Origin: a virus
IMG/VR virus record: IMGVR_UViG_3300031566_000020
Span: 818-64,817 of that record
Strand: one strand, 5' to 3'
Length of the DNA: 64,000 nt
In this document: positions 20,085 to 41,808 of the stretch, one piece after another
Position numbering within the stretch: position 1 is the stretch's first letter
Layout: every line of letters starts with the position of its first letter
Made by a program: the position numbers and the translations under genes
The notes under the pieces: model-generated
The model's database searches: none
What the model was told of the DNA's origin: nothing
The model's input: the letters and a program-made list of their open reading frames with translations, nothing else

Positions 20085-21213
20085 TTTAGAAAAGATTGAA
20101 CTTACAAATTTTCAAAAACATTCCCATCTGGTTTTAGAATTTAATGATGGGGTTAATATTTTATATGGTTCAAGTGATGCTGGTAAATCATGTGTCAGGA
20201 GAGCTATAGAATTTCTCTGTGATTTTAATGTTTGTGATGGTATTCGTAAGACCGGAACAAAGAAAACAGAAGTTAAGGGCTGGTTTTCAAATGGGGTTAT
20301 TGTAACAAGAGTTCGTAGCACAAGTATCAACAGGTATATTTTAGAGAAAGACGGAAAAGAACAGATTTTTGATGCTATTGGTAGAAGTGGAGTTGAAGAA
20401 ATATAGGAAGCGATAGGCATTTACCCTTTAGAATTTGATGATAAGAAACTTTATTTAAACACACAGCCACAAATTGCTTTACCTTTTTTATTTGATTTAA
20501 GTCCTTCAGATAGGGCTAGGATTTTTAATAAGCTTACCGGAAATGATATTCTAGATAAACTCTTTGGGCAATTCAATAAAGACATTTTACGCATTAAAAG
20601 AAAGTATAAAGAGGAAGTTGAGAATTTTGAAGAAAGGTCAAAAGAAATTGATGAAAAAGAAATAGAGAAGGAAAAAGTAGAAGCACTTCACATGCGGTTA
20701 AAAGTACGCATAAATGACATCAAAAACAGGTATGAAAAATATTCTAAGTTGTTAGAGTTAAAGGATTTACAAGTAAAAAATAGTGAAAACATAAGTAACG
20801 TAAAGACCGTTCTAAAAAACTTCACTTTTCCAGAAGATACTGAAATTAAAAAGCTTAGAGAAAATGTAGTGTCATTTAATGAGCTATTAGAGGTCAAAAA
20901 ACGCTGTGAGAAGCTCTCTGCTGGTTTGGAAGGGGTCAGAGGTCAGTTAAAGGCTTTGCGTTTGCCTACGCTTGATTCTGCAAAGATACAGGGCAAAATA
21001 GAAAGGTTCAACACCCTGAAATCCCTGAAAGAGAAACTTGACAACAATGAGAAAATATGTTATACTATACAGAGAGAAGTCAAAATAGGGGAAAAAGAGC
21101 TTTCTGTTTCATTAGATAGACAAAAATGTTTACTTAAAGAAATGAAAATTTGTCCAATTTGTAAAAGAGAAATAGACAATTCTTGTATAAAGGAGAATTT
21201 TAATGAAAGATAA
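20077..21213 (+). CDS. sbcC: SbcC/Rad50-like ATPase N-terminal half (Walker A, coiled coil, Zn hook) with in-frame TAG at 20404-20406
   Basis: IELTNFQKH, YGSSDAGKS; frame stays open after the TAG (EAIGIYPL...QIALPFLFDLSPSDRARIFNKLTG) and joins ORF 20692-21213 in frame, ending CPICKREID. Confidence 0.82.
21038..21066 (+). promoter_or_regulatory. sigma70-type promoter P4 embedded in sbcC-N
   Basis: TTGACA 21038-21043, 17-bp spacer, TGT-TATACT 21058-21066. Confidence 0.75.
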
Positions 21214-21445
21214 GATAGCAGAGGTGATAAAGAAAAAGGACTTTCATTATGAGTATGATGACCCAAGAGACTTAGCCCAAGCCATTGTTGACCTTATCGC
21301 TAAAGAGTTGCCGAAGGAGAAGGAAATGTCTGATTATGCTCCTAATGGGAGTGTTGAAAAAGCAAGGAATAACCAGTCAAATATGAGTGGCTTCAACCAA
21401 TGCCTTAAAGACATCAAACATAAACTGGGGAATAAAACTGCATAA
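21203..21445 (+). CDS. hypothetical protein (80 aa)
   Basis: AAGGAG RBS; C-terminus encoded through repeat copy 1. Confidence 0.65.
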   Translation: MKDKIAEVIKKKDFHYEYDDPRDLAQAIVDLIAKELPKEKEMSDYAPNGSVEKARNNQSNMSGFNQCLKDIKHKLGNKTA

Positions 21446-21514
21446 ATTTTAAATCAAGTTTCATGCAAATGAACACACTTTCATATAAATGAACATAAAC
21501 TGGGGGGGGGAGTT

Positions 21515-21610
21515 ATGAGTGTATGCTATGTGTGTGGAAAACCTGAAGATAAATGCACCTGTGGAAAAGAAGGAACTTACAAAGGCAAACATAAACTAAC
21601 GGAAGGGTAA
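21515..21610 (+). CDS. Cys-rich microprotein (31 aa)
   Basis: MSVCYVCGKPEDKCTCGKEG...; start codon supplied by repeat copy 2. Confidence 0.5.
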   Translation: MSVCYVCGKPEDKCTCGKEGTYKGKHKLTEG

Positions 21611-21695
21611 ACAGCGTGGCTCGTAACCACAACCTTATTGAGTCGCCAAGCGTCTTGGTAAGTGGACAGGGATTACAACCCTGCCCTTCCGACCA
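21600..21695 (+). ncRNA. tRNA-like structured element (non-canonical or degenerate tRNA)
   Basis: 8-bp acceptor-like stem CGGAAGGG/CCCTTCCG plus ACCA end; 5-bp stem/7-nt loop CAGGG-ATTACAA-CCCTG adjoining the acceptor; hairpins GTGG-CTCGTAA-CCAC and CCAAG-CGT-CTTGG; T-loop and D-arm are non-canonical. Confidence 0.55.
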
Positions 21696-21717
21696 AACAT
21701 AAACTGGGGGTGGAGTT

Positions 21718-21912
21718 ATGAGCAAGGCAAGGTGTAAAAACTGTAAAGAGGTAATTGAATCAAAACATAGACACGACTTTGTAGCCTGTAAATGCTTTAA
21801 GAATAAGCAAAACACAACAGGGATATTCATAGATGGTGGGAATGACTATAGAAGATGTGGAGGAAACTTTGATAATTTAGAGTGGCTAGATAATAAACTG
21901 GGGGTGGAATGA
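21718..21912 (+). CDS. conserved small phage Zn-binding protein (IESxHRHDFVxCxC family)
   Basis: CKNCKEVIESKHRHDFVACKC...IDGGNDY. Confidence 0.75.
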   Translation: MSKARCKNCKEVIESKHRHDFVACKCFKNKQNTTGIFIDGGNDYRRCGGNFDNLEWLDNKLGVE

Positions 21913-22055
21913 AAAAGACCACCAAATATAAAAAAAGAATATGGGAAGATAGGTTGCTTTGTGTTGAAACAACAAGCGATATTGTTGAAAGATACTTCAA
22001 AGGAAATTGGGATGTTAAGTTCAGGAATGAGGAGAACGGGGAGGAAACAAAATGA
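21909..22055 (+). CDS. small hypothetical protein (48 aa)
   Basis: Start supplied by repeat copy 5; ATGA overlaps at both ends. Confidence 0.5.
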   Translation: MKKTTKYKKRIWEDRLLCVETTSDIVERYFKGNWDVKFRNEENGEETK

Positions 22056-22669
22056 TTAGTGACCGTTTATGTGTAGAAGAAAGACATTTTAAAATCGCAA
22101 AAGAGATTAGACCATCTATTAAAAAGGATAATATTGTTTTAATTTATGGTACATCAGGAACAGGAAAAAGTGAAGTAGCTGATTGTTTGCAAGGGGAATT
22201 GTTTAATAAAAATATTTCAAGTTTTGTTCTTTCTTTAGATGATTATTATAACACTATTCCAAGTTTAAGAAATACTAATCGTAAAAAGATGGGATTAGAT
22301 TCTGTTGGATTACAAGAGATTGAATGGGAGCATTTAAGTAGAATTTGTGCAGACTTTCAAGAGAAGAAAACAATCTATTTTAAAAGAGTACATAAATTTG
22401 CAGATATTATTGAACATAATTCAATTGATACAGAAGAAGTTGATGTAATTATTATTGAAGGTTTATTTGCTGGTTATATGAAAAATTATGGTTATGGTGA
22501 CTTTGCAGTTTATTTAGATGGTAATCCAGCTCAAACATTAGCCTTTAGGGAAAAAAGGCGAAAAGAAAATCCTAATGATTCTTTTAGACAGAAAGTAGTG
22601 CAGAAAGAATTTAACATCATTTGTCAGTTAAAAAGATACGCTGATAAAATTATACCGTTTGAGGAATAA
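22052..22669 (+). CDS. uridine kinase / phosphoribulokinase-like P-loop kinase
   Basis: IYGTSGTGKS, LSLDDYY, VIIIEGLFA, FAVYLD. Confidence 0.75.
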   Translation: MISDRLCVEERHFKIAKEIRPSIKKDNIVLIYGTSGTGKSEVADCLQGELFNKNISSFVLSLDDYYNTIPSLRNTNRKKMGLDSVGLQEIEWEHLSRICADFQEKKTIYFKRVHKFADIIEHNSIDTEEVDVIIIEGLFAGYMKNYGYGDFAVYLDGNPAQTLAFREKRRKENPNDSFRQKVVQKEFNIICQLKRYADKIIPFEE

Positions 22670-29613: not shown

Positions 29614-32310
29614 ATGACTGACCAAATGCATCTTTTAAAAAAAGTTACTGATTTGCTTAAAGATAATAATATCGAATATTTCCTTGACTGTGGAACTCTA
29701 CTTGGTGCAGTTAGAGAAGGAGATTTTCTTGCTCATGATGCCAATGATATTGATATTGGATTGAAGCAAGAGGACTATTGGAAAGTAAGAACCATAATAG
29801 ACCGACATTTTGAGTTAGAATATAAAAATTATTGGAGAGCTGAAATTGCAGTTACTCTTGATAATAAATGCCATCTAGATATGTTTTTCTATACAGATGA
29901 AGGGAAATATCTAGCAACTCAAGCATGTTTAGGTAACCCAATGCAAAGAGGGATTAATATAGAATCTGAAACACGAAGATTAAAAGAGAATATTTTTCCT
30001 TTGAAAACAATCAAAATGAAAAGAAAAACTTTCTTTGTTCCAAATAATCCGGAAGCTGTATTAGAAGAACAATATGGGAAAGAATGGAGAACTCCTGTTA
30101 CAAAATGGTATCATGAATATGGACAGGGCTTAAATCCGGAGCATAGAACCATAGGAATATTAATCACAGCGTTTTTAAGAGATGACAAGCTTTTTAAAGA
30201 AGTAAATTCGATATTACAGTATTGCGATAAAGATGACCTATTCAGAAAATGGATTCGTATTTATATTGCTGACCAAGGAAATCCAGAATGGTCAGAAGAA
30301 AAACAAAGATTCTATGACCAATTAAGAGCAAACGGACATAAGATATTTAAAACACCTTACAATTCCGGGCTATCATACAACAGGAACTTTTTGGTTGAGC
30401 AAAGCAACGAACCATACCTGATGATTATAGATGATGATTTTGAGTTTACCGAAAAAACGGATTTAACTCAAATGATTGAAATTTTAAATCATAGAGAGAA
30501 AAACGGAATTGTTGGTGGAGATATTGATGAAAGACCTCCATATCATGCAAACTTAATGTTTGAAGTTAAGGGTGGAATTAATCATCTTTATAGAATACAA
30601 AAAATGAATCAAGAACAGAATGTTAAGAATTACAAATACTATTATACAGACATTGTGCTTAATTTCTTTTTAGCCAAACGAAAAGTCTTAGAAGATGTTA
30701 AATTAGACAACAATTTAAAATTGGTTGAACATTCTGACCACATGCTCCGTATTAAAAGAGATTCAGATTGGAAAGTGTGCTATTGTCCAGATGTTACATG
30801 TAGACATCAAAGAGGTAGAGATAGTGATGAGTATCGTAATTTCAGGCATAATCATAACTATGTGCAAATGTTTTTAGATAAATGGAATATTAAAGAAGAA
30901 AGAAACGCACACAAAGTATATGTAACTCCAATAAAAGAAATTAAGTGTATTGAAGAAAAACCTGAACATAAAGAAAAAATAAAAGTTGTTCAGATTGCAA
31001 GGATTCCATGTGCCAATAGTGCATATGAAGTGTCAAACCTATTAAATAAGTATTCAGATAAATATGAATCACGTTATATTTTAGGAGCAGAATATAGCCG
31101 AAACAATCAAACTATTCCTTTCAGACAATTTCCTTATGATATCTTATGGAAAGAAAATCAAGAGGAAGCTATTAGACTTATTAAAGAAGCAGATATTATT
31201 CATATTCACCACGATTCATGGGAAGACATAGAACAATATTTTGAAGGAAAGTGTGTTGTAAGTACGTTGTATAATTTAACACAGTCTTTACAGTATAAAG
31301 ATAATAAATTTAATAATGATTATCTTAATAAATTAAAATCTTTTGGACATATAACAGTTGCAGACCAGCCACTTCAAAAAATAATGTTCAGTGATATTTC
31401 AACTGACACTGTTCCATTAGTAAAAATGATGTTTGGGTTAAGAGTTTATGACAACGGAAATAAAAATGTTGTTATAGGCTTTGCTCCAACAAATAAAAGC
31501 CCTATAGGTATAGGAAGTAAAAGATTTGAAGAAGTTATGACTGTGATAAACGGTCTTAAAGAAAAATATGACTTTGAATTTAAATTAATCGAAGGACTTC
31601 CTTATGAAGAAAATTTGGTAGAAAAAGGCAAATGTGACATCATTATTGATGATGTTGATGATAGGTATGAAAAGGCTCACAACACAACTATTGAAGCTGG
31701 AATGCTCAATGCAGTTCCATTGACTAATTATAGTGGAGATTGGTATCCAGCACATAAGACATCAATCATTAACTTACAAGAAACTTTAGAGTTATATTTA
31801 GAGAACCCGGCATTGATAGAAGATTATCGTAAACGGATTTTGGAAAAATGGAGAGCCGAAGTGTATACTCCTCAAAATTTGTTAAAAGAATTTGAAAGAG
31901 TTTATGATAGTTTAACAATAAAGAAATCTATAGAAGAAATAGCAATACCAGATACAAAAGATTTATCAATTAAAGAAGAATTTATTTTACTAGATTCAAT
32001 TTTTGAACAAAATAAAATTGATTATTGTTTAATAAAAACAAGTTGTTTAGATGCAGTAAGGTTTGGAGAACCTCGTTTAACACCAGATACAATACATATA
32101 GCGGTAAAAGATATTGAAAAAGCGTCAGCGATTTATAAAGAATTAAATTTAAAATTAAAGGTTAAGTTTTCTACTAATATGCCACCAAAAATGAAAGAGA
32201 TTGGATTTTTTGGAAGGGCTAGAAAGATTCCATTTCCTGTAATTCCATATCTTCAAAATTTTTATGGATATGGAACAAGGTGGAGAAAGTATGGTATAAC
32301 AGAACAATGA
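29614..32310 (+). CDS. four-domain glyco-enzyme: LicD + GT-A (GT2/GT12-like) + GT-B (GT4-like) + degenerate LicD
   Basis: GTLLGAVREG...DIDI; GLSYNRN...IIDDDFEF...VLNFFLA; IGFAPT...DIIIDDV...TIEAG; C-terminal YCLIKTSCLDAV...PVIPYLQNFYG. Confidence 0.85.
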   Translation: MTDQMHLLKKVTDLLKDNNIEYFLDCGTLLGAVREGDFLAHDANDIDIGLKQEDYWKVRTIIDRHFELEYKNYWRAEIAVTLDNKCHLDMFFYTDEGKYLATQACLGNPMQRGINIESETRRLKENIFPLKTIKMKRKTFFVPNNPEAVLEEQYGKEWRTPVTKWYHEYGQGLNPEHRTIGILITAFLRDDKLFKEVNSILQYCDKDDLFRKWIRIYIADQGNPEWSEEKQRFYDQLRANGHKIFKTPYNSGLSYNRNFLVEQSNEPYLMIIDDDFEFTEKTDLTQMIEILNHREKNGIVGGDIDERPPYHANLMFEVKGGINHLYRIQKMNQEQNVKNYKYYYTDIVLNFFLAKRKVLEDVKLDNNLKLVEHSDHMLRIKRDSDWKVCYCPDVTCRHQRGRDSDEYRNFRHNHNYVQMFLDKWNIKEERNAHKVYVTPIKEIKCIEEKPEHKEKIKVVQIARIPCANSAYEVSNLLNKYSDKYESRYILGAEYSRNNQTIPFRQFPYDILWKENQEEAIRLIKEADIIHIHHDSWEDIEQYFEGKCVVSTLYNLTQSLQYKDNKFNNDYLNKLKSFGHITVADQPLQKIMFSDISTDTVPLVKMMFGLRVYDNGNKNVVIGFAPTNKSPIGIGSKRFEEVMTVINGLKEKYDFEFKLIEGLPYEENLVEKGKCDIIIDDVDDRYEKAHNTTIEAGMLNAVPLTNYSGDWYPAHKTSIINLQETLELYLENPALIEDYRKRILEKWRAEVYTPQNLLKEFERVYDSLTIKKSIEEIAIPDTKDLSIKEEFILLDSIFEQNKIDYCLIKTSCLDAVRFGEPRLTPDTIHIAVKDIEKASAIYKELNLKLKVKFSTNMPPKMKEIGFFGRARKIPFPVIPYLQNFYGYGTRWRKYGITEQ

Positions 32311-41175: not shown

Positions 41176-41808
41176 TTAATTATCTAACCATTTAACTACA
41201 AATACAGGACTTGCACTAAATCCAGTTGTTTGAGAAGCTGGAATTACTACACATATATTTGCATATAAATTGGTAGCTGTGCTTAAATAACCACTTCCAT
41301 CATTTAATTCCAAATAATTTCCGTCTGTACTTCCAGCCATTCTTGTTCCGGTTGTAATCCATCCAGCTCCGGGTAATCCTGAAGTTGTTACAACACCACG
41401 AATAAAACTTGAAGATGGTGTTCCACTTCCAAGCATTGCTCCTGTTGCTGTGTTTAAATTATCATCATCATATACTTCTAACTGTGGTTCTGATGCTGTA
41501 GAAGCGTCAAATGCAAAACAAAGAACATACCTTTTATTAACATTGCCCATATTTGGTATATCTTTTAATTCATCTGCACTTGTATCTTGAAGTAAATATG
41601 TATCCATGATAATTTGTGCCCCTGTTAATATTACACCAGCAGAAATAAGTTCTGCCTGTGATGGCACATCTTCCCCATCTGCTACTACGCTATTTCCAGC
41701 AGTAAAGATAAGTTTATCTGAACTTTCTGCATACTCAACCCACTCAACCCCACTTGTTCCTTGTGGTGAATCAGTTGAATCACAATTTACATAGACTTTT
41801 AAAGCCAT
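41176..41808 (-). CDS. structural protein (210 aa)
   Basis: AAGGAG RBS; Thr/Ser/Gly-rich; tail region. Confidence 0.55.
   Translation of the reverse strand: MALKVYVNCDSTDSPQGTSGVEWVEYAESSDKLIFTAGNSVVADGEDVPSQAELISAGVILTGAQIIMDTYLLQDTSADELKDIPNMGNVNKRYVLCFAFDASTASEPQLEVYDDDNLNTATGAMLGSGTPSSSFIRGVVTTSGLPGAGWITTGTRMAGSTDGNYLELNDGSGYLSTATNLYANICVVIPASQTTGFSASPVFVVKWLDN

Follow-up and report, generated by a model that had tools for sequence, protein, structure and literature searches.

The segment at positions 21600-21695 (+) of the phage sequence analysed here resembles a tRNA in outline and ends in ACCA, which raises the question of whether it is a tRNA, the remnant of one, or another kind of RNA with a tRNA-like shape. 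The window, meaning the whole stretch of DNA that was analysed, is 64,000 nt long and corresponds to bases 818-64817 of the 68,226-base IMG/VR virus record IMGVR_UViG_3300031566_000020, a soil phage with an estimated completeness of 73%. The 96-nt element has a G+C content of 0.53-0.54, compared with 0.32 for the window. A first-pass annotation had described a GC-rich segment with an 8-bp acceptor stem, an ACCA end, and a T-like arm of 5 bp with the 7-nt loop AUUACAA, and each of these features was confirmed on the sequence and in a minimum-free-energy fold.

The fold predicted by RNAfold is a four-way junction with a cloverleaf-like order of helices. It is closed by an acceptor-like stem of 8 bp, P1, in which 21600-21607 pair with 21684-21691. 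This is followed by J1/2, a single-stranded linker of 8 nt (21608-21615) that begins with a U and occupies the place of the 2 nt plus D-arm of a tRNA. P2 (21616-21630) is a hairpin of 4 bp with the 7-nt loop CUCGUAA, which resembles an anticodon loop with the triplet CGU. In the long variable hairpin P3 (21633-21663), a small internal loop separates the lower stem, of about 10 bp, from a short apical stem that is capped by a 3-nt loop. P4 (21667-21683), a hairpin of 5 bp with the 7-nt loop AUUACAA, sits in the T-arm position and runs directly into the 3′ strand of P1, and P1 and P4 together make up a 13-bp coaxial helix (8/5). The ACCA tail (21692-21695) is unpaired. The first base of the element (+1) is C, and the base preceding it (-1) is A. 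Two readings of the segment had been offered previously; the one with no D-arm, the loop CUCGUAA, and a long extra arm matches the predicted fold, while a weak D-arm with GG is unsupported by either the fold or the homologs.

The fold is more stable than expected from composition and depends on the strand. The plus strand folds with -36.8 kcal/mol (z = -3.4), and none of 200 shuffled sequences folds as well; for the opposite strand, z is -1.4. Furthermore, P3 contains three G-U pairs in the window, which makes this hairpin strand-specific.

Despite its outline, the element is not a canonical tRNA, and no detector recognizes it. ARAGORN detected neither tRNAs nor tmRNAs in the window, the whole phage record, or a second phage of 44.6 kb that carries a version of the element (see below), and neither phage encodes any tRNA by this measure. 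For the element, ARAGORN returned nothing at default settings, with the score threshold lowered to 80% (-ps80), at the mitochondrial default, or with introns allowed. The mitochondrial -ps80 and the -ps60 (60%) settings gave junk calls only, all on the opposite strand and none on the plus strand. Canonical, intron-containing, and mitochondrial-type tRNAs are ruled out by the ARAGORN settings tested. No Rfam 15 family matched the element at the gathering score, and searches with 501 nt and 121 nt of sequence at E<=10 found no relevant family, a result that covers tRNA, tRNA-Sec, tmRNA, Y-RNA-like RNAs, and self-cleaving ribozymes. Specifically, neither RF00005 nor RF01852 gave a match at E<=10 in the 121-nt search. 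These results bear out the earlier description of the element as tRNA-like and non-canonical.

Several features that define tRNAs are missing from the sequence. The T-like loop AUUACAA does not contain UUCRA and lacks U54, C56, and A58. G18-G19 of the D-loop are missing as well, as the only candidate for a D-like loop, CUCGUAA, has no GG. Seen as an anticodon arm, P2 has U33 and A37 in the window and a stem of 4 bp rather than 5; in the 44.6-kb phage, the loop is 8 nt long with a U at the equivalent of position 37. The P4 loop is also compatible with U33/R37. As the first-pass annotation stated, there is no loop that resembles a CUA anticodon. Among the features of tRNA-Sec and allo-tRNAs, the 8/5 branch and the long arm are present, and the D-arm and UCA are absent.

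Two further explanations were considered and rejected. Stop-codon recoding as the reason for an odd tRNA found no support, as there is no global TAG signal and the sbcC-N gene is uninterrupted in related phages. In the window, sbcC-N carries an in-frame TAG at 20404-20406, and the relatives encode sbcC-N at this locus as one gene of 375-378 aa with no interruption. Little open frame is gained across the window when TAG is read as sense. This TAG looks strain-specific, and it reflects a nonsense mutation, an error in the assembly, or read-through at this site rather than genome-wide recoding. An archaeal bulge-helix-bulge intron in P3 was considered because some homologs of a neighbouring kinase are labelled as Asgard MAGs, and no 3-4-3 motif occurs in any of the three P3 versions. 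The neighbouring gene (22052-22669) encodes a 205-aa PRK/uridine-kinase-like P-loop protein whose homologs are common in large phage-like contigs, a few of them labelled as Asgard or Nanobdellota MAGs. Since the contigs of the relatives carry bacterial-type RecA, Pol A, GcrA, and MgtC, these labels are likely the result of mis-binning.

Homologs of the element were sought by scanning viral, metagenome, and genome collections for the exact 17-mer of the P4 hairpin. Near-identical copies, termed lineage 1, occur in about ten related (soil-)metagenome contigs in three gene contexts. Variant B (contigs L055 and L076) shows no difference from the window in P1, the linker, P2, or P4. In its P3, an unrelated sequence takes the place of the inner 30 nt and likewise folds into a short apical hairpin above a small internal loop and a lower stem of about 10 bp. 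The copy in L156 has AUCGUAA as its P2 loop. Lineage C is a single element in the complete, unrelated 44.6-kb phage, which has no protein in common with the window phage at E<=1e-3. Here, the order of the helices is unchanged and J1/2 is 7 nt long. The ACCA tail is present in all copies of lineage 1 and missing in lineage C.

The comparison between the two lineages shows how the structure has been kept. Four of the eight P1 pairs are altered on both sides and none is broken. In P2, one of four pairs is altered on both sides (U-A to C-G), again with none broken, and the loop retains UCGU. P3 of lineage C is a third, different hairpin, with the CCU/AGG base in common. The versions are 96, 103, and 106 nt long, and therefore a conserved reading frame is excluded. 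RNAalifold independently gives the four helices, and in a control in which the pairing partners were slid, paired cells fell from 97.5% to 37-61%. Variant B and lineage C also fold as four-helix junctions well below their shuffles, and for each of the three versions the gene strand gives the better fold. Because of this, and because of the G-U pairs, the structure is taken to be read from the transcribed strand.

This sequence comparison indicates that the element is a real conserved structure, with stems kept by compensatory change; the covariation rests on one divergence, that between lineage 1 and lineage C. Stem-preserving substitutions in homologs had been named beforehand as a test of the element, and both double substitutions and the replacement of one hairpin by another were found. 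The same evidence speaks against the earlier suggestion of a degenerate tRNA or an integration relic. Every stem is kept by compensatory change in an unrelated phage, and a decaying relic would not keep its stems in this way, so that such an origin is unlikely. P4 is identical in all members, an identity that is partly by construction, as the members were retrieved through the P4 17-mer; for this reason it is unusable as evidence for a sequence-specific partner. Tertiary contacts were also explored. Kissing between the P2 and P4 loops was rejected, as GUAA/UUAC would give 4 bp in the window and this pairing is lost in lineage C. A pseudoknot of the linker with a loop or with P3 was likewise rejected, as it is not conserved between the lineages.

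Additional searches returned the same two lineages. Two relaxed P4 patterns in IMG/VR gave no third lineage, and a P4-independent pattern built from the linker and P2 found the same two lineages only. The exact P4 17-mer revealed no further lineage in 185,579 species genomes. A covariance model of the element finds one copy per genome and none in the more distant relatives L225 and L226.

One occurrence of the P4 sequence lies beside a true tRNA gene. In an MAG of an uncultured gammaproteobacterium (L108:4120-4260), the exact 17-nt P4 is located 22 nt downstream of a normal tRNA-Thr(CGU) gene, and the terminator next to this gene holds a 9-mer matching the linker of the element. The chance of such an adjacency is roughly estimated at about 0.01. 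The 17-mer was not found beside tRNA-Thr in 100 relatives of this genome, and the covariance model sees only P4 at the locus. It could be a scar left behind by a mobile element that had used the tRNA as its integration site, or a coincidence.

The surroundings of the element in lineage 1 are those of a gene cassette. Flanking repeats had been noted before and were confirmed: one copy of a 12-nt direct repeat (21586-21597, +), which is also the 3′ end of a 31-aa ORF, ends 2 nt before the element. The next copy (21694-21705, +) overlaps the CA of CCA and is followed by the RBS and ATG (21718) of a 64-aa DUF7695 gene. In the relatives, this 12-nt motif forms an ordinary gene-to-gene junction that combines a stop region, an RBS, and a start, which may overlap. 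Since the repeat is a general cassette junction, the repeats of lineage 1 need no special insertion mechanism. The small genes at 21203-22055 of the window are shuffled among related phages (L013, L076, and L150-L156) at the 12-nt motif, RBS, and overlapping start.

The element stands downstream of three different genes. These are a 31-aa Cys-rich ORF (in the window, L013, L149, L153, and L156), a homolog of an 80-aa ORF (L055 and L076), and a glycosyltransferase-like gene (L042). Whichever of these genes precedes it, the element begins exactly with P1, and four different genes are found on its downstream side. The left flank in L042 is different and does not contain the 12-nt repeat. The junction is empty in L150, L151, L154, and L155, where the DUF7695 gene (64 aa) joins the preceding gene through a single copy of the motif. 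In L225, whose 205-aa kinase-like protein is 79% identical, the cassette array is wholly absent and sbcC-N abuts the kinase gene. In every lineage-1 context, the element lies 14-26 nt upstream of an RBS and start codon. Judged from these arrangements, it behaves as an autonomous and accessory cassette in lineage 1.

The setting in the 44.6-kb phage is different in kind. There, the element is flanked by a 15-nt direct repeat that occurs at only these two sites in that genome. This repeat keeps the mobile-element reading alive. The element terminates a G+C-rich, roughly 700-nt stretch without a convincing ORF (L005:640-1250, - strand, equivalent to about 31120-31730 of the phage). The last 471 nt of this stretch fold with z = -4.5 and match no Rfam family, and the stretch may be a larger structured RNA that is unannotated. 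The neighbouring genes are a split sbcC and sbcD in the window phage, and exonuclease, SSB-like, and methylase genes in the 44.6-kb phage.

In the window, the element is on the same strand as all its neighbours, and no promoter-like or terminator-like site adjoins it. The nearest strong sigma-70-like promoter on this strand (21038-21066, +) matches the consensus at 11 of 12 positions and has a TG extension, and on this match it is a candidate start for the transcript that carries the element. Since the element shares the strand of its neighbours and has no promoter or terminator of its own, we infer that it is made within a polycistronic early transcript.

The explanation we favour, with a probability of about 0.4, is that the element is an accessory, cassette-borne, tRNA-shaped non-coding RNA that would be released from a polycistronic transcript and act in trans as a mimic or decoy. 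It would be a small structured RNA gene with its own cassette in the hyperplastic small-gene region of an early/DNA-metabolism operon, and would be co-transcribed with the flanking small genes. Host tRNA-processing enzymes would then release the RNA, or cut at least its 5′ edge, by recognizing the 13-bp coaxial helix of P1 and P4 and, in lineage 1, the 3′ ACCA, in the manner of RNase P. The role of the stable RNA would be that of a mimic or decoy, directed at a host factor with an affinity for tRNA-shaped RNA or anticodon-type loops. The tRNA mimic proposed by the first-pass annotation is plausible, and the place of the element among shuffled small accessory genes fits such a role. Phage RNAs other than tRNAs, and operon mRNAs, are among the known substrates of RNase P (review PMC11143913). 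The bacterial enzyme cuts substrates of this kind, with a 13-bp coaxial helix and ACCA behind it, and cleavage of the element is predicted.

Several observations count against a mimic or decoy. There are two independent lineages only, and CCA is not kept in lineage C. The elbow marks used by RNase P, the CCA-adding enzyme, and other tRNA binders (UUCRA and GG) are missing. In addition, a C at +1 and an A at -1 are not the usual preference of RNase P, and no partner protein is common to both phages.

Phages are known to encode RNase P substrates that are not tRNAs, including the C4 antisense RNA precursor of P1/P7, the M3 RNA of phi80, and the stable RNAs of T4. In these RNAs, a 5′/3′ stem stacked on a hairpin and a 3′ NCCA form an acceptor-like structure inside a longer transcript. 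The element is similar in being a small phage RNA with a stacked stem and hairpin and a 3′ NCCA (ACCA in lineage 1). However, it has no relation to them by sequence or in Rfam, and it forms a full four-helix junction with a long variable arm. Compared with the C4-RNA type, which has a helix of about 12 bp and a 3′ RCCA, the element has the 13-bp stack of P1 and P4 with ACCA in lineage 1 and no CCA in lineage C. Other tRNA-shaped modules with non-decoding uses are the tRNA-like domain (TLD) of tmRNA, the Y RNA-like YrlA of bacteria and phages (PMC4201824), and mascRNA, all of which keep the elbow between the T-loop and D-loop and are found by Rfam models. The element shares the tRNA shape with these modules, some of which are phage-encoded, but differs in having no elbow and no Rfam match.

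In shape, the element resembles canonical and class II tRNAs, tRNA-Sec, and allo-tRNAs. It has the cloverleaf order, a long extra arm, a U after the acceptor stem, and, in lineage 1, ACCA; its acceptor-like stem of 8 bp is combined with a T-like stem of 5 bp, which is also the arrangement in bacterial tRNA-Sec. It differs in the lack of a D-arm with GG and of the T-loop consensus, in the 4-bp anticodon-like stem, and in the linker of 8 nt instead of 2. The acceptor branch is 13 bp (8/5) in tRNA-Sec and 12 bp (8/4 or 9/3) in allo-tRNAs, and these RNAs have a D-arm of 6 bp or of the normal kind and carry UCA or another anticodon in a normal anticodon arm (Mukai et al., 2017; PMC5389517). Overall, the nearest systems are phage tRNA-like RNase P substrates and tRNA-like domains by mechanism, and tRNA-Sec and allo-tRNAs by shape, and the element is a member of none of them.

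The cassette arrangement has a parallel in the PeSLs of T4-type phages, which are mobile regulatory cassettes for the shuffling of small genes and have a junction made of a promoter and a stem-loop. In both systems, short conserved junctions bound reshuffled small accessory genes. Unlike PeSLs, the lineage-1 array includes one cassette that is a structured RNA, and its junction is an overlap of stop, RBS, and start. An origin as a MITE or IS-derived element was rejected, as the P1 sequence differs between lineages, the repeats are 12 and 15 nt long, and there is one copy per genome. No integron attC core sites (RYYYAAC/GTTRRRY) were seen on inspection of the element sequence. The VIPR vrRNA is defined by tandem 5-nt units of GGYNN (bioRxiv 10.64898/2026.10.15.759431), a periodicity that the element does not show, and this identity was also rejected. 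A guide or antisense role was set aside, as neither genome contains a target of at least 12 nt. An 11-mer at 41350-41360 (+) of the window is a perfect complement of the P4 loop together with the two adjoining stem positions on either side, and there is no such site in the 44.6-kb phage; this complementarity is probably due to chance.

The element could instead be a cis-acting part of a polycistronic mRNA, serving as tRNA-like punctuation or a processing site, or as a 5′ stabilizer. The gene that follows would in this way be uncoupled from the preceding one in its decay or translation, and no function in trans would be left for the RNA once excised. Its location inside an operon without its own promoter or terminator agrees with this, as do the spacing of 14-26 nt to the next RBS and start and the fact that operon mRNAs are known targets of RNase P (PMC11143913). 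However, the genes upstream and downstream both vary, meaning that the element is not tied to one gene, and most junctions in these phages do without it. Also, a four-helix junction with a maintained long hairpin exceeds the needs of a processing site, and the element occurs in an unrelated phage as well, at the end of a 700-nt non-coding stretch. A cis-acting role appears rather unlikely. The fold could alternatively serve the spread of a selfish mobile element, either through DNA (by short-repeat recombination or cassette circles) or through an RNA intermediate, with little benefit for the phage. Consistent with this, the element lies between direct repeats in each lineage (12 nt in one, and in the other 15 nt unique to these two sites), filled and empty junctions exist among close relatives, the insertion contexts are of three kinds, and the element is the sole thing that the two otherwise unrelated phages have in common. 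Yet the repeat of lineage 1 also serves protein genes as a general junction, and the left flank in L042 lacks it. The repeat lengths and the terminal inverted sequences (P1) differ between the lineages, unlike those of a MITE recognized by a transposase. There is a single copy per genome, and no reverse transcriptase, integrase, or transposase was seen on inspection of the ORFs around the element in both phages. A selfish element is considered unlikely.

Another alternative, in line with the first of the two readings in the first-pass annotation, is an aberrant, decoding tRNA-Thr(CGU) that lacks a D-arm and has a long variable arm and an acceptor branch of the 8/5 type. Its anticodon loop would be CUCGUAA in P2, which contains U33, CGU, and A37, is identical to the anticodon loop of the real gammaproteobacterial tRNA-Thr(CGU) in L108, and retains UCGU in lineage C. 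In addition, a U8-like U opens the linker, a G-C pair closes the T-like loop, A73 is followed by CCA in lineage 1, and the long arm varies as variable arms do. Against this stand the absence of an ARAGORN call on the plus strand and of a match to RF00005 or RF01852, the 4-bp anticodon stem, and, in lineage C, a loop of 8 nt in which position 37 is a pyrimidine. U54, C56, and A58 are missing from the T-loop, which has no GG partner. A 13-bp acceptor branch is of the tRNA-Sec type, which is disfavoured by EF-Tu. Furthermore, ACG is the rarest Thr codon in the window phage (53 of 1301), and there is no other tRNA in either phage. A decoding tRNA is very unlikely. Finally, the segment could act as DNA, in single-stranded or cruciform form, by signalling recombination or replication or by binding a protein as a palindrome. 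Genes for DNA metabolism are nearby in both phages, P4 is an interrupted palindrome of 17 nt, and direct repeats flank the element. However, the gene strand folds clearly better, and several G-U pairs become A-C on the other strand. The compensatory changes preserve pairing rather than sequence, and there are no attC-type core sites and no conserved terminal sequence. A site working at the DNA level is highly improbable.

A more speculative reading would have the element move horizontally between unrelated phages as a decoy for a tRNA-directed host defence, such as an anticodon nuclease. The CGU-type and UAC-type loops would be the baits, and the long arm, being freely replaceable, would be a by-product of an arms race; alternatively, the element would be a SINE-like selfish RNA that leaves target duplications of 12-15 nt. 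This scenario is regarded as quite unlikely.

About 10,000 candidate structured RNAs of viruses have been catalogued (PMC10690425), and this motif may be among them. The element and its homologs apparently form an undescribed small family of tRNA-shaped phage RNAs with two lineages. If it is only a processing signal or a selfish insert, it would be a modest curiosity. It shows that real structured phage RNAs are left unannotated by tRNA finders and Rfam. It would also offer a compact scaffold of natural origin, in the form of a four-way junction in which one arm can be replaced wholesale. The accessory regions of phages are known mainly for small anti-defence proteins, and a conserved and mobile RNA that is tRNA-shaped without being a tRNA would add an RNA player to this repertoire.
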